Source: Escherichia phage vB_EcoM_Goslar. Taken from it: a DNA stretch of 64,000 bases. The position numbers and the translations under genes were made by a program. The DNA lies in the sequence record NC_048170.1. One strand, written 5' to 3'. Under the pieces are notes generated by a model that was not told the DNA's origin, searched no databases, and saw nothing but the letters and a program-made list of their open reading frames with translations. This document shows positions 2,888-46,744 of the stretch, piece after piece (the stretch's first letter is position 1; the number at the start of each line of letters is the position of its first letter).

Positions 2888-5800
2888 TACATAAACTCCT
2901 CGATGATGCAAATCCCATTAGCACCACGCCCACCAGGCTTAGCGGTTCCTGAGTAAGAGTTATCGTAAGCACCACCACCACCCGAACCAGGCGCGAGGCC
3001 GTTATGGGCGGTGCCAACACCAGCGCGACCGCCACCGCCCCAATATGACGCACCCCCACATCCACCGACGGCAATAGTACCGGCTTGTCCATCGCTACCG
3101 TCTCCGCCCGGAATGCGTATATCCCCGGTAGCAGGTGCGCCCCCATAGCCACCGCCAGTGTTTGTGACAGTTGTTTTTCCTGCGCCTTGCCCGCCGGGAG
3201 CAGTTAGCAGGGATGCAAATTTACTATCCCCACCCCCGTTCCCAGACGTCGCCCCAGAGCCACCGGAACCACCAGAACCAATTATAACAGAATAACTAGC
3301 AGCTGTTACCGTTATAACCGAAATTACTGTTCCGCCAGCTCCTCCCCCAGCACCAAAAAACGTTTCGCTGTTGGAATAAGCCTGACAGCCACCGCCGCCA
3401 CCGCCGCCACCGGTTATTGTTACTCTAATCCGTTTTGTTCCTTGTGTTGGAGTGTACGTCCCTGACGATGTGAAAACACGCATGTTCAGTAAACGTCCGA
3501 CATATCCGCTAGAATCGGCTAAACCAAGATCTTTAGCTGCTAACGTGATATTAGCTGTACCATCGAAAGGTTTACCGTTAATCGTGCGCGCAGTTTGCAA
3601 CTTCGTCGCCGTGGCTGCGTTCCCTGATGTATTCTGGTTCCCCGCGACGTTAACACCTGGTAGATTGATGTTCGCACTACCGTCGAAAGACACCCCACCA
3701 ATGGTGCGGGCTGTTTTCAGTTTTGTCGCCGTGGCGGCATTCCCCGTAGTGTCTTGGTTTCCTGCTGCGTTAACACCCGGCAGACTGATATTTGCCGTAC
3801 CATCGAACGCGACACCGCCAATCGTCCTTGCCGTTTGTAGTTTTGTCGCCGTGGCGGCATTACCGGTTGTGCTTTGGTTACCGGTGGTGTTTACCCCAGG
3901 TAGGCTGATATTTGCTGTTCCGTCAAATGAAACGCCGCCAATCGTCCTTGCCGTTTGCAACTTCGTTGCGGATGCCGCGTTCCCCGTGGTGTTTTGGTTA
4001 CCTGTTGCATTCACACCAGGGATACTATCCTTAGATGTATAGATCTGTGCCCATTCCGACCAATTCGAATCGGCTGCATCCCGACGAGAACGAAGATAGG
4101 CTGGCGCATGCGCCCCCGATGTACCAGACCATCCAATAAGGATCTCACCTTCACCTACTGCGGTTGCGCCTTTAAGATGAATAATATTGCCGTACGCTGT
4201 AGGGTATCCGTTATTGTACGCTTCATACATCTGGATACCCGTATTGCTACCCTGGGTCGCATTAGCTAAAGCGGTGACCCGTCCCTTGGAAGCGAGCACG
4301 TTAATGCTAAAGCTAATATCAGTTGTACCGTCAAAGGCGACCCCATTAATCCTCCGTGCCGTTTGGAGTTTCGTGGCAGTAGCCGCATTACCAGAAGTGC
4401 TCTGGTTACCCGCTTTGTTCACACCCGGTAAATCAATGTTGGCAGTCCCATCAAACGACACACCCCCTATGGTTCTCGCCGTCTGGAGTTTTGTTGCTGA
4501 ACCGGCGTTTCCGGAAGTGCTTTGATTGCCCGCGGCGTTGACACCAGGTAGGTTAATGCTAGCAGAACCATCAAAAGAAACTCCACCGATCGTAATGGTC
4601 GTTTGCAACTTCGTGGCTGTCGCAGCGTTACCCGTCGTATTCTGATTACCAGCTGCATTGACGCCAGGTAATGCGATATCAGTTGTACCGTCAAAAGCGA
4701 CACCACCGATTTTACGGGCGGTCTGTAGCTTGGTTGCGCTTCCTGCGTTTCCGCTGGTGTCTTGGTTTCCTGCAGCGTTAACACCCGGTAGACTGATGCT
4801 GACCGAACCATCGAAACTCACACCACCGATCGTAACAGCGGTTTTCAATTTCGTGGCAGTAGCTGCGTTACCGGTTGTATTTTGATTGCCTGTCGCATTA
4901 ACGCCCGGTAATGCAATATCCGCTGTTCCGTCAAAGGCAACGCCACCGATTCTACGTGCAGTTTGTAGCTTGGTCGCTGTAGCGGCATTACCGCTGGTAT
5001 TTTGCGTGCCTGCTTTATTTACACCGGGAAGATCGATGTTAGCAGAACCGTCGAAGCTAACGCCACCTATCGTTCTTGCCGTAGCAAGTTTAGCTGCTGT
5101 AGCAGCGGCGTTACCGACTTTTAACCATTCGCCCCATGGACCATCCTGGCCGTTCCATGATGCCGTTAAACTACGTACGTAAATATTGCCGGTACGTACA
5201 GTGTAACGTTGTGTTCCACCGAATTGCCCGGTTGGGAGCACTTCAATGTAACCTGCGGCGTTTGCTTCAGGGAAATTGTGGGCGACGTCCGCGTTCGTCG
5301 TTATTGGTTTAGACCAAATACCCACAGATGCTTCGACTGGACCGAAGGTATTCAGATTTGCGTCCGTCGCCATAGCACCATTAAATTTCAGGTACGTCTC
5401 TGGCGATAATCCGATCGTTTTAGCAAACGCAACTTTATCTACGATATCACTACCGTTATTCCCTGCCTGCAATGCTGTCTTAGCTGCCTTTATGGTTTCT
5501 GTCAATCCAAGATACAGTAAGACCGCATCAACGCTTCCTTTGCTTAGCAGATTCAGACCTGTTGACGTTACGTTAGTTAGCCCGATTTGGTTCCGTCCAG
5601 TAAAATAAGGGAGTTTATTCGCATCTGTTGTTAGGTTAGACCACGCGGTCAGCAACGCGTTCAACGGTTGTTTACCCGCCAACGCATTGGTTACTGTCGT
5701 TGCGAAATTAGGATCGTTCCCTAAAGCTTGAGCCAGCTCATTAAGCGTATTTAGCGCTTCTGGAGACGAGTCGATCAGCGATGCGATAGCACGCATCACA

Positions 5801-7600: not shown

Positions 7601-10600
7601 TTAAATTGTTGGTTTTACATCGCGTAATAGGGCGATATAATAGCCTAATCCTCGGAGGATCTCCCCGCTCCAGAAACCAAAATACATTCCGTCTCTGCCG
7701 AGATTAGCGCTATCTGGTGCAGGACTCCATCCACCATTCATTACGTCATCAACGGTGTAGCGGTTGATGTAGTTTTCAACGATTTCGTTATAAGCATTAA
7801 CCGCAACAGAATAGCCTTTATCGTTGGGATGTCCGTACAACATTGCTAACGACGCACCCGCCAACCATAATCCTGCCATATGACCAGTAAAGTCGTTCGG
7901 GATAAAAGCAGGAGGTTTATCCATCGGAAAATCCGTAGGTGATTGATAAGCGTTTTCCTGTTGATACGTAAACAAGAAATCAATCCAATGACTGATGTAA
8001 GTGGTTAACTTCTCAGGGACAGCCAAACCACGATCGAGCAGTCCAGCATAAAGCCTCACCGCTGAAAAGAAAGCCCTCGGCTGATAACCAGACCATGCTG
8101 TCTGATCGCCGAAATGGTACATCGTAAAATCATTAACTTTTGATCCGCTTGGCGCATCCCAACGATCCCACACGTACGCACTTGCCCCTGGCCCTAAAAC
8201 CCCGAATTTCTGATAATACCACTGCTGTGAGTCATACCAGAAATTCACAACATTCTGAATCATGAGGTCACGTCGTTCAGCCGATACGTCCATATCCAGG
8301 AAGACCCATGGATGCTGGTAGCCGGGATAAGGCTGACCGCGCCAACTGTCGAACGTCGGTGCGTTAGGGATATAGTTGTTAGAGAACGGAATAATACCCG
8401 GAGTATAAGGCAATGGATCCAGACGTTGGTTGACAATCGTACAATCGCCAACACGCAATGTGCCCTCTGCCTCAAAGATTGCTTTTAACGTAAACAGCAT
8501 GGTATATCCGTCATCCGTGGTGTAAGTTGACGGTGGATTGTTGATGGCGTAAAGCTTAAATACCCCTTCAGCGATATCGCTGCCATCAGGCAAGAACAGA
8601 ATTTCAGTTGAACCGTCGCCCCACACAGGTGCGGAAGGTTTAGGGTCAGTATCAGCATGGCCAGGTTGATACCCTGAGAGCCTCCATCCGTTCGCCGAAA
8701 GCGTCAATGTATTTCTTGCTGTGGTGGCCGGTAGCATATACCACCATCGCCAACCATTTGCATCTTCTACACGAACGTTGTAGTCAATCGACGCGAAATA
8801 ACTGACCTGTCTTACGATCTGTTTTGCGGTTGGATTGAATTCAAATTGCCCGCCTGCCGCAGTAAGCTGCGCTTTTAAGAACAACCCATCCCAGGAATCT
8901 TCCGCTGCTTCGCTGAATTCTGTTGTGATTGCGACATCGTCTTTCCAGCCGACTTTATCAGCCGATATCAACACAGAACCTGTAACAGCATCACCGGTTG
9001 GCGTTGAAACTTCATCAACCGCATCAGCAGGAATCAACGAGCCTATTTTGAAATCCCATCCTTTCGGTTCAGCGCTGGAAGGTAATACCAGCTTGTACGT
9101 TTTGGCTTTCGCTTCGGTTTTGTCCAAAGAAAGCGAAAGTGAAATCTCAACCGGAATTGCAATACCTGCCGTATCCTTACCTCCGCAGGTTACACGAAGA
9201 ATTGAATCACGATTGACGCGGAACGGAATGGCCTGCTGTTCAAGATAAATTTGTGCTGAAGATGCTTGAATCACGATCCAGCCATCGGCATCACGTGTGA
9301 TTGTGAACGGTGCTTTCGATGGATAGGTATACGTGTAAGCGATACCATCGGTGTCGTAACGATCGGTTCCTTTTACCTGACGGAAGAACTTATCGTTGGC
9401 GTCGATACGGGTATATTCTTCAATCGTAAACAAAGATGCCTTGTACGCTTTCTGATAACGCTCCTGCTGCGTTAAACGGTATAAGGTGTAGGCTGCTTCA
9501 CAAAACCACTGTTCAGCGTCTGACGCGTTTCCCATGTAGTCTCTGGTGACCGGCACCTGGATCGGTCGGTTATGCTGACACTCGTTCGTTTTGATGAGGT
9601 ATCCGCCATATTCGACAGGAACGCGGGGTGCCCACGCAACCAAATAAGAACCGCTGACGGATTTATCTTTGAGTACGATGGTACCTACCTCATCGTCAGT
9701 ACACGCTTCAAGATCGTCCCCGTCAGCACTTACGTAACGTTTTGTGCGTAACGCAACTTTCTCGATAGGGAACACCGTACCCTTTGTATCCCAGTCAATC
9801 GTCCCATCATCATTGGTTTTGAACACATCGGCGTTCAAATTCTGCCAGCCGAGTTTACCCTCATAGACCTGAACAACAAGATCCATGTATTCCCCGAACG
9901 TTGGTGCCCCATGTGTTATTTTCCCGATACCGTTGGTGAATGTAACCGCTGTGTCATGGAAACCCCCGTGTGTTGGGTAATCGTCTTTTGCAAGAGGATA
10001 ATGAGCCAACACCGGTTGCTTACCATTAACGATCCAGTTAGCGATCCAGCGTGTCGGTGTATCCGGTGGTTCAAGGCCTGCGTAGAACGCTTTTATATAC
10101 GCATCGAACGATGACTCTGCTAATGCGAGATAATGCGCTTTAAGCTTGGTATCATCCGTTGTATGACTGAATATACCCGCACCCAGAATTAACAACGACT
10201 GTCCTTCTGTTGTTGCGTCACCATCCGGTTGTGCTTCTTGTCGTGTTGCTGCAATGAAATGGCGGTTGTTTACCATCACCCCGCTTTCATTTAACACGTA
10301 ATGATCGGTTTCTGGATCGGTAAACGTTCCTGTGTTTCGGGTTAAGAATCTTGCATGACCATAACCAACGAAATTAACCGGCGACGCTGTAATCATCCAT
10401 TTACCGATAAGTTGAGCAACATCATTATAACGCTCGGATGCGGTGATTTGTTTCACGTACCAGTCTTTATGGTTAAATGTCCAAAGCAGGAAGTAATAAG
10501 TTGTATCGATTTCCATCACCGGGAACGTTGGTGTTAACGGCTCCAATGTTAAGTAGTTGCTCCAGTCAATCTGTCCGCCAACAACCGATGGGGTAATCTC

Positions 10601-17398: not shown

Positions 17399-17716
17399 TT
17401 AGTTTGCACGTAAGAAATGACCCAGAACCGTTACGATTGGAAACAGCCCCGTAACAGTATTATCACCCGAAAACATCATCATTGTTCCGTTAACGGTGAT
17501 GAAACGGATGTCGGTTGCGGACCCATCGATAGCGACAAAACGCATCGAGTTCGGTGGAAGGTCCTCAACCACTTCCACGAGGTACTCGCGATTATCAAAG
17601 GCTTCTTTAACACGACGCATGAAACGAATCAAGGTTCCTTCCGCGTCAGCTTCCAAATGACCTAAGATATCGCGATTATTACGAATAGCAAATACAGCCA
17701 TTTTAAACATACTCAT
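17399..17716 (-). CDS. hypothetical protein (105 aa)
   Basis: ORF track; preceded by conserved 20-nt motif. Confidence 0.45.
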   Translation of the reverse strand: MSMFKMAVFAIRNNRDILGHLEADAEGTLIRFMRRVKEAFDNREYLVEVVEDLPPNSMRFVAIDGSATDIRFITVNGTMMMFSGDNTVTGLFPIVTVLGHFLRAN

Positions 17717-17782
17717 CTTGACATCCTTTTATATTGGATTGGTTGCTAATAATTCAAGGTGAAGCTGATTACTGCATTGCTT

Positions 17783-17806
17783 CACCTAAGTAATATAGCC
17801 GTGAAA
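17783..17806 (-). promoter_or_regulatory. conserved 20-nt intergenic motif (copy 1), candidate promoter element
   Basis: taagtaatatagccgtgaaa at 17787..17806, identical to 46790..46809; both 45-70 nt upstream of a minus-strand start; minus-strand reading TTTCACGGCTATATTACTTA contains TATATT. Confidence 0.35.
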
Positions 17807-17824
17807 ATTAATGTATTAACCCAT

Positions 17825-18778
17825 TCACGCTTTTGCTAAGTAGGGTTGGATCTCATTAATCCGTTTAACCACAACCTCAGGGAAAAGTTTGAGTATTTCA
17901 TCAGGTGGTATCGTACCTTCTGTCCAACGATAGCGTTCGACCATCTCGATGCGTGGACTCCCTCCGACATCAGCGATACGAAAGATACAGGCGATGCCTA
18001 AATCGAAGCATACGCTGTAAATATCTTCCGTACCTCCTTTATCAGCAAGTATTTTCGCAAAATGCTCGTTGTCAGGAAGAATGGCTAAATTACGGATACA
18101 CCAAACATTACTACCCATTTCTTCAAGTTTTGGGTAAGTTAAAGTGTGTCCGTATTGTGTTAACCATCGATGACTTTCGAGGTAGAAGTCCTTATCCCCT
18201 GGTCGATAACCCAATATCACTCCCGTGTAGAAGAGATTGGGCATATCGAGCAGTTCTCGAATCGTTGGGCCGGTATGCTCCCAGAGACAGATTTGTTTAC
18301 GGTCTATATCGTAATCTGTGACGTTACTCACCTCCCAACTTATCGTAAGTTCATCGGCAACACGCCAACCTAAAGCATGTTCGCCACCAAGCAGATTAAC
18401 AATGGCCGATATTTCATACTTGTCAAATACGCCTAAATTACGCGGTGGTTGCATCGTACGTAATGGCTCCCACAGCACACTGTAATCATAGAGCAAATGG
18501 CGACATAAACTTTTTGTTAGGGGTGTCTGTTCAGTGAAAAGTGGAAGAATCACCGTATCCAATAACGGGCGTAACGGATGATCGTTCGGTGGTAACGGGG
18601 CAGCCAGCCGACCTCCTTCTTTGGGGTAATCGAGACCAAACCCGTAACGCTCCGAAATAAGCGCAACCAGCACTTTTGCTACGCGGTTACGTAGCATGCG
18701 ATGGATATCATCACTGTAACTGAATTTCGGTTTATTTCCGCAAACGAAGGTGAAGTATCTAGGCGATAGCTTAACCAT
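17825..18778 (-). CDS. hypothetical protein (about 317 aa)
   Basis: ORF track 17825..18835; start moved to ATG 18778 (MVKLSPRYF) preceded by AAGGAAAAG and not overlapping upstream gene. Confidence 0.5.
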   Translation of the reverse strand: MVKLSPRYFTFVCGNKPKFSYSDDIHRMLRNRVAKVLVALISERYGFGLDYPKEGGRLAAPLPPNDHPLRPLLDTVILPLFTEQTPLTKSLCRHLLYDYSVLWEPLRTMQPPRNLGVFDKYEISAIVNLLGGEHALGWRVADELTISWEVSNVTDYDIDRKQICLWEHTGPTIRELLDMPNLFYTGVILGYRPGDKDFYLESHRWLTQYGHTLTYPKLEEMGSNVWCIRNLAILPDNEHFAKILADKGGTEDIYSVCFDLGIACIFRIADVGGSPRIEMVERYRWTEGTIPPDEILKLFPEVVVKRINEIQPYLAKA

Positions 18779-29186: not shown

Positions 29187-29457
29187 TTACACCTGGCGGT
29201 ACCACGATACCGGTACGAATCACAGCAGCAACTTCCTGCATGCCTTTACCTTTCAACGCGTAGGTTTCATATACCGTATTACGTCGCGTCGTTAATCCAA
29301 CAAATTTACATACAACCATGTTGTTTTCTGAAAGGTAGGCGGTGTCGAGTTCGCCGTGCAACAATTCTTTTTCTTTGGTATCAATGCCTAATAACGCAAT
29401 TTGATAAGCAGAAAGTTTCCAATAGCGCATGTTATCACCCAAACTGTTAAGAAGCAT
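29137..29457 (-). CDS. hypothetical protein (106 aa)
   Basis: ORF track; overlaps neighbours. Confidence 0.35.
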   Translation of the reverse strand: MLLNSLGDNMRYWKLSAYQIALLGIDTKEKELLHGELDTAYLSENNMVVCKFVGLTTRRNTVYETYALKGKGMQEVAAVIRTGIVVPPGVSDNLDEVLHGTRKATR

Positions 29458-29863
29458 CCTGTTTAATGTCGATGACTATTTCCGTTCGAACCGGATTAGT
29501 CAGCACAGCACGCATGCGTTCAAGCATCATTGGGTTATCCGTAACCACCACATCGGCGTAACACAATGGATGACTTTCGAACGCTTCAGTGTCGCTTACT
29601 AACAGAACACCCATCACATTTACGTATTGCGGTATGCGTCCACGGATGCGTTGCCACATGTCTTGAGTAAGGTCTTCGTTTTCTAATGCGACCACGACAA
29701 CAGGACTGATGTTTACCGGGAAACGCGGGTGCACCGTACGACGAAATGTTACCCAGTTTTCGACGTGGGATAATGCAAGTTCAAGAGAACAGCATTTTGG
29801 AGAAATCTGTATGTTTATTTGCTGAATCAATGAAAGGGGGTTTTGTACAGTCGCTTCAGCCAT
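29447..29863 (-). CDS. hypothetical protein (138 aa)
   Basis: ORF track. Confidence 0.45.
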   Translation of the reverse strand: MAEATVQNPLSLIQQINIQISPKCCSLELALSHVENWVTFRRTVHPRFPVNISPVVVVALENEDLTQDMWQRIRGRIPQYVNVMGVLLVSDTEAFESHPLCYADVVVTDNPMMLERMRAVLTNPVRTEIVIDIKQDAS

Positions 29864-35632: not shown

Positions 35633-36652
35633 TTACACCGCCACCTTAGCCTTGATAGCGGGGTGTGATTGATATCCGACGAACACAAAGTCTTCGTAAC
35701 GGTAATCCGTAATACTTTCTGGTTTACGTACGATTGTTAGCTTCGGTAATGGATACGGCTCACGACTAAGTTGTTCTTTAACCTGTTCGAAGTGGTTGTG
35801 ATAGATGTGACAATCTCCACCCGTCCACACGAACTCACCAACGTCCATATTCAGCTGTTGGGCAAGCATGTGTGTCAGCAGTGAATATGATGCGATGTTA
35901 AAGGGAGTCCCTAAAACTGTGTCCTGTGATCTTGCGAGTAGCATGCATGATAAGGCGCGTGTCGGTACGTTGTGTGTATTCAACCAAAGTTCCGTTTCAC
36001 TGTGTCGTACATCATCCGTAACCCACTGGGTTCTTAATACGTCGTTGCGTTGAACATAATCAACACGTTCATCGATCGTGAGCTCGTGGGTATAGAACTG
36101 ATAGAAACTGTGGCATGCGGGAAGCGCCATATCGTCTAAATCACCTACGTTCCATGCGCTAACGATGATCCGTCGAGAATCAGGGTCTTCTTTAAGCTGA
36201 CGCATCACGTTTGCGATTTGGTCGTGGTGTTTAACATACAAGAGATGTTTGACCATACCGGCGTCAACAACACCGCAATACTCATAGCCGCGTTGCATCA
36301 ACTCACGAGTACGTTCTGTATCGTGCGGAACAACCACTTTGTAGTCGATCCATTCCCGCCATTGTTTGCCGTAAATCGGTCCTAGATTCCCTTCTTCGTC
36401 AGCCCATTCATTCCAGATACGAACACCGTTATCTTGAAGATAAGCAACGTTTGTGTCGCCGTTAAGAAACCAGAGCAGTTCGTGGATAACGCTCTTAAGG
36501 TGAATCTTCTTGGTGGTTACCAGCGGGAATCCTTTCTTCAAGTCAAAACGCATCTGACGCCCGAATACGGAACGGGTCCCGGTGCCTGTACGATCAGCTT
36601 TATCGCGACCGTTATCCATGATGTCTTGCAAAAGGTCCAAATACTGTTTCAT
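35633..36652 (-). CDS. thyA: thymidylate synthase (ThyA family) with two insertions
   Basis: [15 protein letters not shown]...[59 protein letters not shown] (catalytic Cys), [25 protein letters not shown]; 339 aa versus about 264 aa for bacterial ThyA. Confidence 0.9.
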
Positions 36653-36852
36653 TTTAATCCTCTAAGTGTTTCAAGTAGTTCCTGAAATTTATAACGATAT
36701 TTAGGATCGCTTAACGTGTAGCAGCAACCATGTAACACGTTATACGCGTAATCGGCTTGTAAACCACGAACCTTCGGATCCAATGATAGATTCAACGGTG
36801 CATCATCAAAAATCCACGCTTCAATGTTCTTCTTGGATTCCTTCGTTAACAT
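36649..36852 (-). CDS. hypothetical protein (67 aa)
   Basis: ORF track; ATGA overlap with thyA start. Confidence 0.4.
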
Positions 36853-36972
36853 CGTTTTTCACCTCGTCGTAAAAGTAAATAGAGTTTTGTCGAGACGCCC
36901 TAATTACTTACAACGTCGGTTCTCCCGGCTTCAGAGAATTCTTAAAATCCGTTAGTTTTGATAGATAGGGTA

Positions 36973-37017: not shown

Positions 37018-37566
37018 TTATTTCACAAGAACAGCGAATTCGAGAACATGAATAGCTTCATCGTCCATCGGATTTGTCGTGGTATAACCGACGAAGCAAT
37101 AGCCCATATCCACGATAAACTCTCTAAGTTTATCGATGACTGATGCCCCGATACGATCGTCAACAGACAGGCGACATTTACGGGTTATGTTTTGCCCGCG
37201 AGGAACGCCAGCTAACACGGATAGGAAATGTACGATCCGGTTATTGGTTGCGAACTGCTTGAAATCATCGTAGTGCTTAAGGTCTTTCATCGCAGACTCT
37301 ACCGTCATACGACGACCAGGCGACACATACTCAGAATAAGAATAAGCTGCAATCGTGCGGCGGTCTTCAGTGAGGTAAGTATTCCCTTCGGGATGATAGC
37401 TCTCGATTGTTCCGTCTTCATAAGCGACGGTCACAACAGGTGCGCCGTACTCGTCGCGACCGAAATCAATTTTACATTTATCCGAAAGCGGTAGAACCGT
37501 GCAAGGTTTTGCGTTGTTCTCATCAGGGAGATCGTAACCACTCATCATTTTCAAGAACATAGACAT
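37018..37566 (-). CDS. hypothetical protein (182 aa), paralog of 37653..38186
   Basis: Shared MS.I.K.M...D.SD.NNAKP and ATYAYS motifs, similar C-terminal ending VLVK/VIVK. Confidence 0.5.
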   Translation of the reverse strand: MSMFLKMMSGYDLPDENNAKPCTVLPLSDKCKIDFGRDEYGAPVVTVAYEDGTIESYHPEGNTYLTEDRRTIAAYSYSEYVSPGRRMTVESAMKDLKHYDDFKQFATNNRIVHFLSVLAGVPRGQNITRKCRLSVDDRIGASVIDKLREFIVDMGYCFVGYTTTNPMDDEAIHVLEFAVLVK

Positions 37567-37652: not shown

Positions 37653-38186
37653 CTACTTAACGATCACGATGATTTTTCCGCCCGCACCAGCGTAATATGC
37701 CGTTAAATTACCAGTAAACAACTCTTGTAAAAGACGATTTACGTGACTAACAAAGTTAGGATTGTCTGATTTTACAAACTCGATATTGCGCGTTTGTTTT
37801 ATATCACGATCGATTAAGCGTATTTCCAACAACGCACAAATAAGGCGATCGTCAAGTTTACCACTTGCATCCAGCACTTCTCCATACTTCGTAGCACGGA
37901 CGTCTGCATACATACGGTCAACATCATCCTTCCCAAAACCACAGGAATAGGCGTACGTTGCGATGGTATTACCATTGTCCATCACATAAACGTTACCGCC
38001 TGGGTAATCGATGAATCGTTGATCCTTATCACCATGAGCGACGAACTCCAGTGTCGGTCTACCTAGTGAATCGCGATTGAATTCGATTGTGGTCAAACGG
38101 TCAGGCACCACATGCAATGTAAACGGTTTCGCATTGTTACGATCGCTAGTATCGCAGTTAGCCATTACTTTTACAATAACACTCAT
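37653..38186 (-). CDS. hypothetical protein (177 aa), paralog of 37018..37566
   Basis: See paralog. Confidence 0.5.
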   Translation of the reverse strand: MSVIVKVMANCDTSDRNNAKPFTLHVVPDRLTTIEFNRDSLGRPTLEFVAHGDKDQRFIDYPGGNVYVMDNGNTIATYAYSCGFGKDDVDRMYADVRATKYGEVLDASGKLDDRLICALLEIRLIDRDIKQTRNIEFVKSDNPNFVSHVNRLLQELFTGNLTAYYAGAGGKIIVIVK

Positions 38187-38992: not shown

Positions 38993-40246
38993 TCACTTCG
39001 GAAGCTTAGAGGCCGCCATGCTTCGCGCCTTCGCAACGTCATACGCATCCATGATTGCATCACCGATAGCGGTATGACGGATCAACGGAATACCCATATC
39101 TGGATACTCTTTGGTACCTAAGATGGATACCGGTTTGTCTTGATATGCGGCAATCATCGAACGGATATCCTGAACCTGGTTATAACGACAAACTGGCTTA
39201 AAGCCTGCTTTACGGAACCAATGCTCTAATTGAGGCCAATCTGTTTCACCGCGAGCAAGATAATAGAAGGTATCCTTACCGTAGTAATCAGTAAACACTT
39301 CACGAATTGTGTTAATAAACTCGTTTACTTCGGCGATGGCTTCTTTATAATCCATCACTTTACTATGTTGAAAACAATAGTCACGCGCTTCCTTCGGTGC
39401 TTTGGTTTGCCACCATTCTACCGTTGATTCACTGATACGACCACCGTCGGCGATTTGACCGTGAACGTCAGGGAAGATATCTATACGTGGACCGTTAGCG
39501 ATGGATTCCGGATTAGCTAGATCAAAGAACACAATACCGATTTCCAGCAGTACCCCGTTCTTTTCCAGACTGAGATTCTCAACATCCAGACAAAAAGCGG
39601 GTTTCTCTACCGTTGAAAGATCAAAACGTCCCTCATATCGTGGTGCTGGCTCGGCACCAAGGAACGTCTCTCGGATGAACTGGGAGAATGTTATATTCTC
39701 TGCTACTAAATCAATACCCAATTTACTTAACAAAGGTATAAGTTCACGATCGTTCTGCTGAATTAGCAACATTACTTGGTCGTTGACACAACAACTAATT
39801 GAGTAAAAGAGATGAACGATATCTAACGGTTTGTACGGAGCCTCAAAAATATGTGTCTGGAACGATTGGGCTAGCGCCTTATGCGTTTCTTCACGATGAT
39901 TCATCAGTTGGAAAATAGCACAGCGCAGATAATGTCGAAGTGTTATCTCGTGAAGATGCGACGTATCTTCTTGAAATAACGTCATGAAACCGTGATACGT
40001 ATAATACTCTCCTCTTTTAATTTCTTCGTGGAGTTCTTTGTTCCCCTTTATTTCTTCTGGCGTTATCGGGTCGATCTGATCACGGATAATGTTGAGTAGA
40101 TCATCGCCGTGTACCTTAAACAGTTTTTCAACGTCAAGATTAGGTAATGTCGCAATCGCCGCGTACATTAATGTTTCTGCGGGATTAAGTTCTTTATTGT
40201 CGATTGTGGTGGTTAAAGCCATTTTATTATACCTCATCGAAATCAA
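38993..40246 (-). CDS. protein with C-terminal DEDDh-type 3'-5' exonuclease domain (DnaQ-like)
   Basis: Exo I-like FCLDVENLSL, Exo III-like IRHTAIGDAIMDAYD (H-x-A-x-x-D-A) in the C-terminal 200 aa. Confidence 0.55.
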   Translation of the reverse strand: MISMRYNKMALTTTIDNKELNPAETLMYAAIATLPNLDVEKLFKVHGDDLLNIIRDQIDPITPEEIKGNKELHEEIKRGEYYTYHGFMTLFQEDTSHLHEITLRHYLRCAIFQLMNHREETHKALAQSFQTHIFEAPYKPLDIVHLFYSISCCVNDQVMLLIQQNDRELIPLLSKLGIDLVAENITFSQFIRETFLGAEPAPRYEGRFDLSTVEKPAFCLDVENLSLEKNGVLLEIGIVFFDLANPESIANGPRIDIFPDVHGQIADGGRISESTVEWWQTKAPKEARDYCFQHSKVMDYKEAIAEVNEFINTIREVFTDYYGKDTFYYLARGETDWPQLEHWFRKAGFKPVCRYNQVQDIRSMIAAYQDKPVSILGTKEYPDMGIPLIRHTAIGDAIMDAYDVAKARSMAASKLPK

Positions 40247-44998: not shown

Positions 44999-45556
44999 TT
45001 ACTCCATCCATACTTCTTCGTCGTAATGATTCTCTATCGCATTACGCCAAAAACGCACGGTGTCCAAACTAATCGGTGCGTAAAAATGTTGGTCAACGCC
45101 AACGTTAAGTCCGTTGGCCTTCGCTAACATACAGCGATGAATATGCCCGAATAGATTAAAGTAACCTGGGTTTCTTTCGCTGGGCTTATGGCATAGCCAG
45201 TAGGATTCGTCATTGCTAATCGGCAACACCAACGGGTGTTCATAAACAGCAGCAAACCCCATACCGAGCAGTTTATCACGCCACGCTTCGAAGCTTAATC
45301 CTGTCGCTTTGTATGCGTCTTCGTCCCAATTCCCCATTACCAATTGAACCTGGATATCAGAACGAATGGCTTCCACGAACTCAAACTTACCCCAATCACC
45401 TAAATGCCATAACACACTGTTCTTTGGAAGCTTGTTGATGGCTTTCAGCATATGCTGGTTCATATCGGCGACGCTTGCGAACGGACGGCGTGAATACGTC
45501 CATGTACGCTCGCTATCAAAATGGGTATCCGACATAAAGAAGATGGGTGGGGTCAT
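44999..45556 (-). CDS. metallophosphoesterase (calcineurin-like phosphatase family)
   Basis: Ordered motifs SDTHF (D-x-H), GDWG, GNWDE, GHIH. Confidence 0.75.
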   Translation of the reverse strand: MTPPIFFMSDTHFDSERTWTYSRRPFASVADMNQHMLKAINKLPKNSVLWHLGDWGKFEFVEAIRSDIQVQLVMGNWDEDAYKATGLSFEAWRDKLLGMGFAAVYEHPLVLPISNDESYWLCHKPSERNPGYFNLFGHIHRCMLAKANGLNVGVDQHFYAPISLDTVRFWRNAIENHYDEEVWME

Positions 45557-46057: not shown

Positions 46058-46744
46058 TTAACACATGATTTCACCATGTTTCTTTTCAACATACGTATAA
46101 ACGTCATCCAAATAAGCAATGAGTTTATCACGATCCGCACAGAGCGATTTAATCACCGCAATCTCTTTCATATAAAGCTGCTGACCTAACGCCGGATATG
46201 TAATCCACGCGTAGCCGTCAGGCGCAAATTTAGAAATAAGATAATCAGCGGTTTCCTGTAATGCGAACTCTTTACTCATCTGGCCGTAACGATGTTCGAT
46301 TGCGCGGATACCAAAACGTTCGCTATCGAGACGGCCCATATCTGCCAGACGAAGCACCTGAGAAGCAACCGAACTACGTGGACCAGAGTACGAGGCACGA
46401 TGTTCAGCAATAAGTACGCGTATCTCCTCGATGTCCTCCGGTGTGAAAATATGCTGCTCGTTACGAAGCAGGATAACCGACGCACGAATACCCCCGATAA
46501 GGTGGTGGTATGTTCTGTTTTCGTGGCAAGCGATATCATGCATAAAAGCAGCGGTTAATAGACGACGACGTTCCGTGGGTCTGATGATCCCAACCACATC
46601 AGCAAGTTCATTTGCCAGTTCAACAACAGCAAGCACATGTTCTTCTTGATGTGCAAGATCGTTCTTCCGAATATTTTCAATTACTTCGGTGCGTGTTTCC
46701 GGAGATAAGAAATTTAAACAATCCAACGAATATAAAGATTTCAT
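46058..46744 (-). CDS. HD-domain phosphohydrolase-like protein
   Basis: LAHQEEHVLAVVELANE ... AAFMHDIACHE (H...H...HD pattern). Confidence 0.55.
   Translation of the reverse strand: MKSLYSLDCLNFLSPETRTEVIENIRKNDLAHQEEHVLAVVELANELADVVGIIRPTERRRLLTAAFMHDIACHENRTYHHLIGGIRASVILLRNEQHIFTPEDIEEIRVLIAEHRASYSGPRSSVASQVLRLADMGRLDSERFGIRAIEHRYGQMSKEFALQETADYLISKFAPDGYAWITYPALGQQLYMKEIAVIKSLCADRDKLIAYLDDVYTYVEKKHGEIMC

Follow-up and report, generated by a model that had tools for sequence, protein, structure and literature searches.

The thymidylate synthase (TS) ThyA of Escherichia coli (PDB 2TSC, 1TYS and many others) has 264 amino acids (aa). Longer forms are also known. Large surface insertions are tolerated without changed chemistry in Lactobacillus casei/Enterococcus-type ThyA (316 aa) and in eukaryotic TS, the 50-aa insert of L. 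casei lying in the small domain (E. coli positions ~87–89). Dozens of jumbo-phage records in GenBank already contain members of a long-form ThyA subfamily, annotated simply as thymidylate synthase. The gene considered here is thyA of Escherichia phage vB_EcoM_Goslar, which lies in a stretch of 64,000 nucleotides (nt) of record NC_048170.1, analysed as a whole and referred to below as the window. Its open reading frame (ORF) occupies exactly positions 35,633–36,652 of the minus strand in the ORF listing, runs from an ATG to a stop codon and encodes a long-form TS of 339 aa, 75 aa more than that of E. coli. It is very probably a canonical ThyA supplying deoxythymidine monophosphate (dTMP), with two structural modules typical of its family, the second of which probably supports the interface sheet at its far edge or serves as a docking surface.

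The predicted protein matched PF00303 over its full length (379.5 bits against a cut-off of 24.3, E 9e-114, profile positions 1–266 of 266). It also exceeded the curated cut-offs (in brackets) of four NCBIfam thymidylate synthase equivalogs, namely NF002497 with 415.2 bits (327), NF002499 with 414.4 (405), TIGR03284 with 355.7 (108) and NF002496 with 339.9 (325). The score against NF010393/PRK13821, a ThyA model of 323 positions which we take to represent Burkholderia-type ThyA, was 223.6 bits, far below the cut-off of 576, with residues 1–205 aligned to profile positions 1–218 in one stretch. Over the alignable core, identity to E. coli ThyA is 67%, and a structure model showed the TS alpha/beta fold with a TM-score of 0.96 to the E. 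coli enzyme (normalised to the E. coli chain).

Catalytic and ligand residues were examined in alignments with E. coli ThyA and 113 family members (114 aligned). In E. coli numbering, R21, E58, W80, W83, Y94, R126, R127, L143, C146, H147, R166, S167, D169, G173, F176, N177, H207 and Y209 are all kept. The catalytic nucleophile is Cys180 (codon at 36,113–36,115, minus strand, in the context ALPACH); C180-H181 correspond to Cys146-His147 of E. coli, and the catalytic Cys is found in all 114 aligned members. In the numbering of the window protein, the phosphate cage and 3′-OH ligands of deoxyuridine monophosphate (dUMP) are represented by R21, R160, R161, R241, S242, H282 and Y284. The set for folate binding and catalysis is represented by D244, E58, Y94, W80 and W83, and N252 is equivalent to Asn177, the determinant of uracil specificity which discriminates dUMP from deoxycytidine monophosphate (dCMP). 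The C-terminal lid, which closes over the cofactor, is likewise kept, the protein ending in AIKAKVAV with the stop codon directly after. A preliminary description, made from the sequence alone, had recognised a ThyA close to that of E. coli, in which the catalytic Cys and the dUMP-binding motifs are kept, and these results bear it out.

Judged by this residue set, the enzyme would be a canonical folate-dependent ThyA (EC 2.1.1.45), most likely acting as the usual homodimer, in which active sites are shared between subunits. Cys180 would attack C6 of dUMP, 5,10-methylenetetrahydrofolate would give the methylene group and hydride, and dTMP and dihydrofolate would be released; thymidylate would in this way be fed to the replication of a very large phage genome.

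The additional length was resolved into two inserts by phmmer comparison with E. coli TS chains taken from PDB sequences, and the window coordinates were confirmed by translation. Three collinear blocks were obtained, in which residues 1–101, 141–188 and 233–339 correspond to E. coli 1–101, 107–154 and 158–264. Insert 1 (aa 102–140, positions 36,233–36,349, minus strand, 117 nt) places 39 aa where E. coli has 5 (loop 102–106; net +34), directly after GKQWREW. Insert 2 (aa 189–232, positions 35,957–36,088, minus strand, 132 nt) replaces the 3-residue turn 155–157 with 44 aa (net +41), directly after FYQFYT. The excess of about 75 aa noted in the preliminary description is thus exact, and both inserts lie where it had placed them, after GKQWREW and FYQFY.

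Both inserts were modelled with a block-mean pLDDT (predicted local distance difference test) of at least 91 using AlphaFold2 (AF2) on the 114-sequence alignment; an earlier model from a shallow alignment of 46 sequences had a pLDDT of 70.5, with the conserved core poorly modelled. Insert 1 forms a strand-helix-beta-hairpin module in the model and is of the same kind as that of the housekeeping ThyA of Burkholderia. Insert 2 is predicted to lengthen the central beta-hairpin and to cap its tip with three helices: the core strands 181–190 and 232–244 are extended, and helices 193–202, 204–213 and 217–226 sit at the tip. Cys180 is modelled at the start of the first of these strands and Arg241 near the end of the second. 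Structure prediction had been suggested in the preliminary description as a means of placing the inserts relative to the active site, and here it puts the tip of insert 2 approximately 8–10 residues along the strands from Cys180/Arg241, an estimated 25–30 Å away from the active site within the same subunit. In TS structures, the central strands flanking the site of insert 2 belong to the dimer-interface sheet, so the module would lie at the periphery of the dimer interface.

The presence of insert 2 co-varied with E. coli positions 192–195, at the C-terminal end of helix J, where Leu194 is replaced by Met (mutual information 0.40, against a 95th percentile of 0.22 in shuffles). Insert 2 therefore probably packs against this end of helix J, docking on the same subunit. 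For insert 1, no core partner rose above the shuffle null in the co-variation test. Insert 2 had no match at E ≤ 10 in a search of PDB sequences and no structural counterpart in the structure comparisons, and no Pfam family recurred when insert-2 segments cut out of 43 sequences were scanned.

The distribution of the inserts shows them to be a shared trait of many giant-phage ThyA proteins and not a peculiarity of the window gene. An exhaustive search of 1.84 billion cluster representatives with phmmer gave 16,276 hits, and the best 150 of these include many proteins of 319–367 aa which align without a break along the full length of the query (43–57% identity). When the best 150 were aligned pairwise to E. 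coli ThyA, three insertion hot spots were apparent, at E. coli positions ~83–87 (the classic L. casei small-domain insert), ~101–108 (insert 1) and ~152–158 (insert 2). The TS fold thus has three surface sites that tolerate insertions, and the inserts of the window protein occupy two of them. Insert-1 segments share the pattern W-x-D-x-K/R-V/I-V...GY...G...R-x-I. Insert-2 segments from very different sequences begin with T-x-E-L-T/S-x-x-E-R, of which T/S-x-x-E reads as a putative helix N-capping box, and end with L-D-x-x-x-V/I-P-x-R-x-L-S-C after a variable middle. Arg196 is present in all of 43 diverse insert-2 modules, and conservation reaches 90% or more at Glu195, Pro230 and Leu234. On the basis of (i) the alignments, (ii) these motifs and (iii) a structural match to the TS of Pseudomonas phage 201phi2-1, the window protein has both long-form modules, at E. 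coli sites 101/107 and 154/158.

Insert presence was scored by column occupancy in an alignment of 106 diverse representatives of 50%-identity clusters, a sample biased towards the query which does not give family-wide frequencies. Both inserts were present in 27, only insert 2 in 45, only insert 1 in 10 and neither in 24. All four combinations occur, and the modules are therefore homologous across the family and independent of each other. A degenerate DNA pattern for P-x-R-x-LSCQLYQRS was also scanned and found at 36 loci in IMG/VR, many of them on contigs of ~220–310 kb, and at 14 loci in 185,579 species genomes. Approximately 3 of these 14 have a real insert-2 module (a Thioalkalivibrio scaffold, a Saccharibacteria metagenome-assembled genome (MAG) and a short gammaproteobacterial MAG contig). 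In the collections searched, insert 2 was thus much commoner among viral than among cellular sequences.

The Thioalkalivibrio gene is on a 289.7 kb scaffold of an isolate bacterium, Thioalkalivibrio sp. ALJ21 (positions 4,170–5,126), and encodes a ThyA of 318 aa whose site-2 segment has 54 residues compared with 12 in E. coli. Its neighbours are small ORFs without a Pfam match rather than the usual housekeeping genes, and it may be a prophage or island copy. Some metagenomic ThyA proteins (P0132, P0144, P0149, P0172, P0194, P0223 and others) were found to have much larger in-frame inserts, of 130–280 aa at the insert-1 loop or ~200 aa at 83–87. In two of the large-insert proteins there are weak, sub-threshold matches to an I-HmuI NUMOD-like DNA-binding domain, which hints at embedded homing-endonuclease-like domains or read-through introns.

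Selection on the inserts was assessed from the ratio of non-synonymous to synonymous substitution rates (dN/dS, Nei-Gojobori) between the window thyA and the genes of its two closest relatives. Values were 0.05–0.13 for the core, 0.03–0.13 for insert 2 and 0.29–0.38 for insert 1. Both inserts are therefore translated and constrained, insert 2 as much as the catalytic core and insert 1 in a more relaxed manner. They are real translated protein and not an artefact, since each stays in frame, recurs in relatives, shows purifying selection and is confidently modelled.

These values also bear on the idea of an origin from mobile elements. Each insert would then be what is left of a group I intron, an intein or an inserted homing endonuclease, translated by in-frame read-through, and the mature protein would be without it. 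Phage thyA/td genes are classic intron hosts, several tblastn matches in phages are split in two pieces, and the site-1 inserts of 130–280 aa with weak NUMOD-like similarity would fit such an origin. The inserts of the window gene, in contrast, are in frame and under purifying selection at the protein level, both fold confidently in the model as integral parts of the domain, and insert 1 is visible as protein in the crystal structure of a homologue (3V8H). Neither a group I intron nor an intein would fit into 117 or 132 nt, and this origin is considered to have a negligible likelihood.

A second alternative is that the inserts are neutral decorations at permissive surface loops, kept by descent and serving nothing beyond their own folding. 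The three sites hold inserts of widely varying length and sequence, the giant ones of 130–280 aa included, and all four presence/absence combinations exist. In addition, insert 1 evolves 3–6 times faster than the core, and the middle of insert 2 is hypervariable. Against this stand the dN/dS of insert 2 among close relatives, which is as low as that of the core, the conservation of its end motifs, with an invariant Arg, across very distant sequences, and its retention in 72 of the 106 diverse representatives. Neutrality of the inserts is regarded as possible but less probable than not.

Comparison of the window thyA with that of the relative L039 (IMGVR_UViG_3300011560_000001) revealed an uneven pattern of divergence. 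There are only 8 differences in nt 1–480, 16 in nt 481–600 (the segment of the catalytic Cys) and 39 in the 120 nt of 661–780 (the RS.D...PFN dUMP strand), many synonymous sites included, and the inserts are nearly identical, with one aa difference. The gene thus looks like a mosaic, which suggests patchwise recombination among thyA alleles in the core with the inserts spared. The dUMP-binding strand, equivalent to E. coli 160–169 (SCQLYQRSCD) and encoded at 35,921–35,950 on the minus strand, is inside the mosaic patch relative to L039; it keeps R166, S167 and D169 and has Q162M, Y164L and Q165A.

Several observations weigh against the view that this is an ordinary ThyA with structural modules. 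Pro145, just before the catalytic Cys, is Ala in the window protein, a rare state seen in 5 of the 114 aligned sequences, and the dUMP strand reads MLLARS instead of QLYQRS (QLYQ to MLLA); from the sequence, an effect of P145A and MLLA together on kinetics or specificity is conceivable. Insert 2 has an invariant Arg (R196), and the strong constraint on this insert argues for a specific function. The co-variation signal of insert 2 is confounded by phylogeny, and no activity assay was found for any long-form ThyA.

The substitutions at the active site invite the interpretation of altered chemistry. The protein would then be a hydroxymethylase acting on dUMP or dCMP, or else a pyrimidine methylase with a different specificity; it would provide a modified base for the phage DNA, and its pocket would be reshaped by the inserts and the MLLA strand. 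The TS superfamily does include phage hydroxymethylases (PMC7824862), and both Gln165 and Pro145 are Ala in the window protein. The specificity and lid residues are intact, however, and the equivalog scores and structural distances also oppose this interpretation. Gln165 helps to orient Asn177, and its replacement was considered as a sign of altered specificity. This was rejected, since position 165 is not Gln in 32 of the 114 family members and L039 has the canonical QLYQRS together with inserts essentially identical to those of the window. Neither P145A nor MLLARS is therefore diagnostic of new chemistry.

T4 dCMP hydroxymethylase gp42 and the CMP hydroxymethylase MilA are only 20–23% identical to it, and they have Asp at the position of Asn177 and no TS C-terminal lid. 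Neither of these features was found in the window ThyA, and hydroxymethylase structures were not its nearest matches. Nothing that points to changed chemistry arising from the inserts was found in the sequence and structure comparisons, no thymidine-hypermodification genes were recognised in the neighbourhood of thyA, and a literature search on DNA modification in SPN3US-type phages returned nothing relevant. The altered substrate raised in the preliminary description is not upheld, given the retained specificity residues and lid, the equivalog scores above cut-off and the occurrence of insert 1 in a bacterial housekeeping ThyA; altered chemistry is held to be very improbable. That description had itself named the occurrence of the inserts in many phage ThyA proteins as an outcome that would speak against it, and they do occur in many. 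Its further suggestion, altered oligomerisation or partner binding, may hold for insert 2, which extends from the hairpin of the dimer-interface sheet and is strongly constrained.

For a canonical ThyA, our best guess is that insert 2 contributes to structure or to interactions at the distal end of the dimer-interface sheet. A more specific proposal is that it forms a virus-specific functional surface, either a tether of ThyA to other phage proteins of nucleotide synthesis or replication, as in a T4-style complex for deoxynucleoside triphosphate (dNTP) synthesis, or a means of reinforcing or regulating the dimer that insulates the phage enzyme from that of the host. In that case the patchwise recombination of the core would reflect selection on the enzyme in host-phage conflict. 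This proposal is thought rather unlikely. If insert 2 were to mediate partner binding or dimer control, it would provide a handle on how giant phages organise their dNTP supply, and also a structural feature separating phage TS from host TS.

The gene is directly preceded by an ORF of 67 aa (36,649–36,852, minus strand), the stop codon of which overlaps the start codon of thyA (ATGA). A GAGGA Shine-Dalgarno sequence for thyA lies within the 3′ end of this ORF, which had no match in a Pfam scan. The overlap and the internal Shine-Dalgarno sequence suggest that the two genes may be co-transcribed and translationally coupled. Just upstream, the adjacent minus-strand ORFs at 37,018–37,566 (182 aa) and 37,653–38,186 (177 aa) are paralogues that are 36% identical in their N-terminal ~80 aa (E 3e-13), and neither was matched in a Pfam scan. 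Further upstream in the same minus-strand block are a 417-aa protein with an Rv2179c-like 3′-5′ exoribonuclease domain (38,993–40,246), a phosphoesterase (PHROG 547; 44,999–45,556) and an HD-domain protein (46,058–46,744); these three are possibly enzymes of nucleotide or nucleic-acid turnover. With E. coli FolA, Dut and Tmk and Thermotoga maritima ThyX as tblastn probes nothing was found in the window, a weak negative, as such probes are insensitive.

Split beta subunits of a multisubunit RNA polymerase, a 1324-aa tail fibre, an NAD-dependent ligase and helicases are also encoded in the window, a gene content which marks a jumbo phage of the phiKZ/SPN3US type, with a genome of ~240 kb and related to the SPN3US/Erwinia jumbo-phage group. 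A megablast of the thyA region against 50,697 phage records gave no DNA-level match. Metagenomic contigs of 237.5 kb (IMG/VR) and 248 kb (ENA) were found to be 86–95% identical to the window. The 248 kb ENA scaffold, at 92% identity, has a Dam-like DNA methyltransferase gene (PF02086) at 17,656–18,483 and a DUF7448 gene at 8,467–9,351. The window has only short junctions at the corresponding places (~29,430–29,464 and ~36,921–36,925), and the two genes thus come and go among close relatives.

Taken alone, the window gene matters little, being a housekeeping-type gene of nucleotide metabolism in a jumbo phage, and recognition of its inserts as a family trait removes a false lead to modified DNA in this phage. 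Insert 1 is already represented in the PDB, and insert 2 appears to be undescribed, no structure or paper on it having been found in the literature searched. Although TS is among the most intensively studied enzymes, a large and mostly viral branch of the family has a conserved three-helix addition on its dimer-interface hairpin, as modelled here. The remaining interest lies in this insert 2, which is unexplained, strongly conserved and mostly viral.

Compared with named systems, the window protein shares its catalytic and ligand residues and C-terminal lid with E. coli ThyA, which is without both inserts; the QLYQRS and A-P-C-H of the E. coli enzyme are MLLARS and P-A-C-H in the window. Neither L. 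casei-type nor eukaryotic TS has an insert at the 155–157 hairpin. At the loop of insert 1, eukaryotic TS presumably has a small insert, which we take to be of 8 residues in the human enzyme. The ThyA of Burkholderia thailandensis (BTH_I1680, PDB 3V8H), a putatively essential housekeeping enzyme, has a crystallised strand-helix-hairpin module of the insert-1 type; it is without insert 2 and is only 38% identical to the window protein. W83, which is kept in the window, is replaced in the B. thailandensis enzyme by Arg or Asn (the published text and legend disagree). Among nucleus-forming Pseudomonas phages, one report describes a fusion of TS to green fluorescent protein as excluded from the phage nucleus during PhiPA3 infection (PMC9067925), and by analogy with this exclusion from the chimallivirus nucleus the window ThyA probably acts in the cytoplasm. 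The predicted structure of the TS of Pseudomonas phage 201phi2-1 (UniProt B3FJL1, BFVD) covers almost the whole window model and both inserts (TMq 0.93, root-mean-square deviation 2.4), although that protein is only 36% identical and, at 457 aa, has further additions.

The nearest ThyA proteins from isolates, at 56–62% identity, are those of the Erwinia phages Caitlin, Stratton, phiEaH2, Asesino and Phobos, Escherichia phage EC001, Salmonella phage SPN3US and its relatives, Proteus phage 7 and Cronobacter phage CR5. These isolate long-form proteins are of ~335–345 aa, are annotated as thymidylate synthase and come from jumbo phages of ~224–250 kb. Relatives of the SPN3US type have been reported to encode dihydrofolate reductase and thymidylate kinase as well (PMC6614189). 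A paper on head assembly lists SPN3US gp100 as a predicted thymidylate synthase (PMC5694885). A second TS in SPN3US was rejected, as GenBank JN641803.1 has SPN3US_0100 as a putative thymidylate kinase, the ThyA is SPN3US_0229, and tblastn gave one ThyA locus per genome. Most ThyA proteins of the SPN3US/Erwinia/CR5 type, from isolates of other genera, keep QLYQRS, unlike that of the window. The ThyA proteins of SPN3US (SPN3US_0229), Caitlin (gp242), phiEaH2, Asesino, Phobos and CR5 have both inserts, at the same sites and with the same motifs as in the window.
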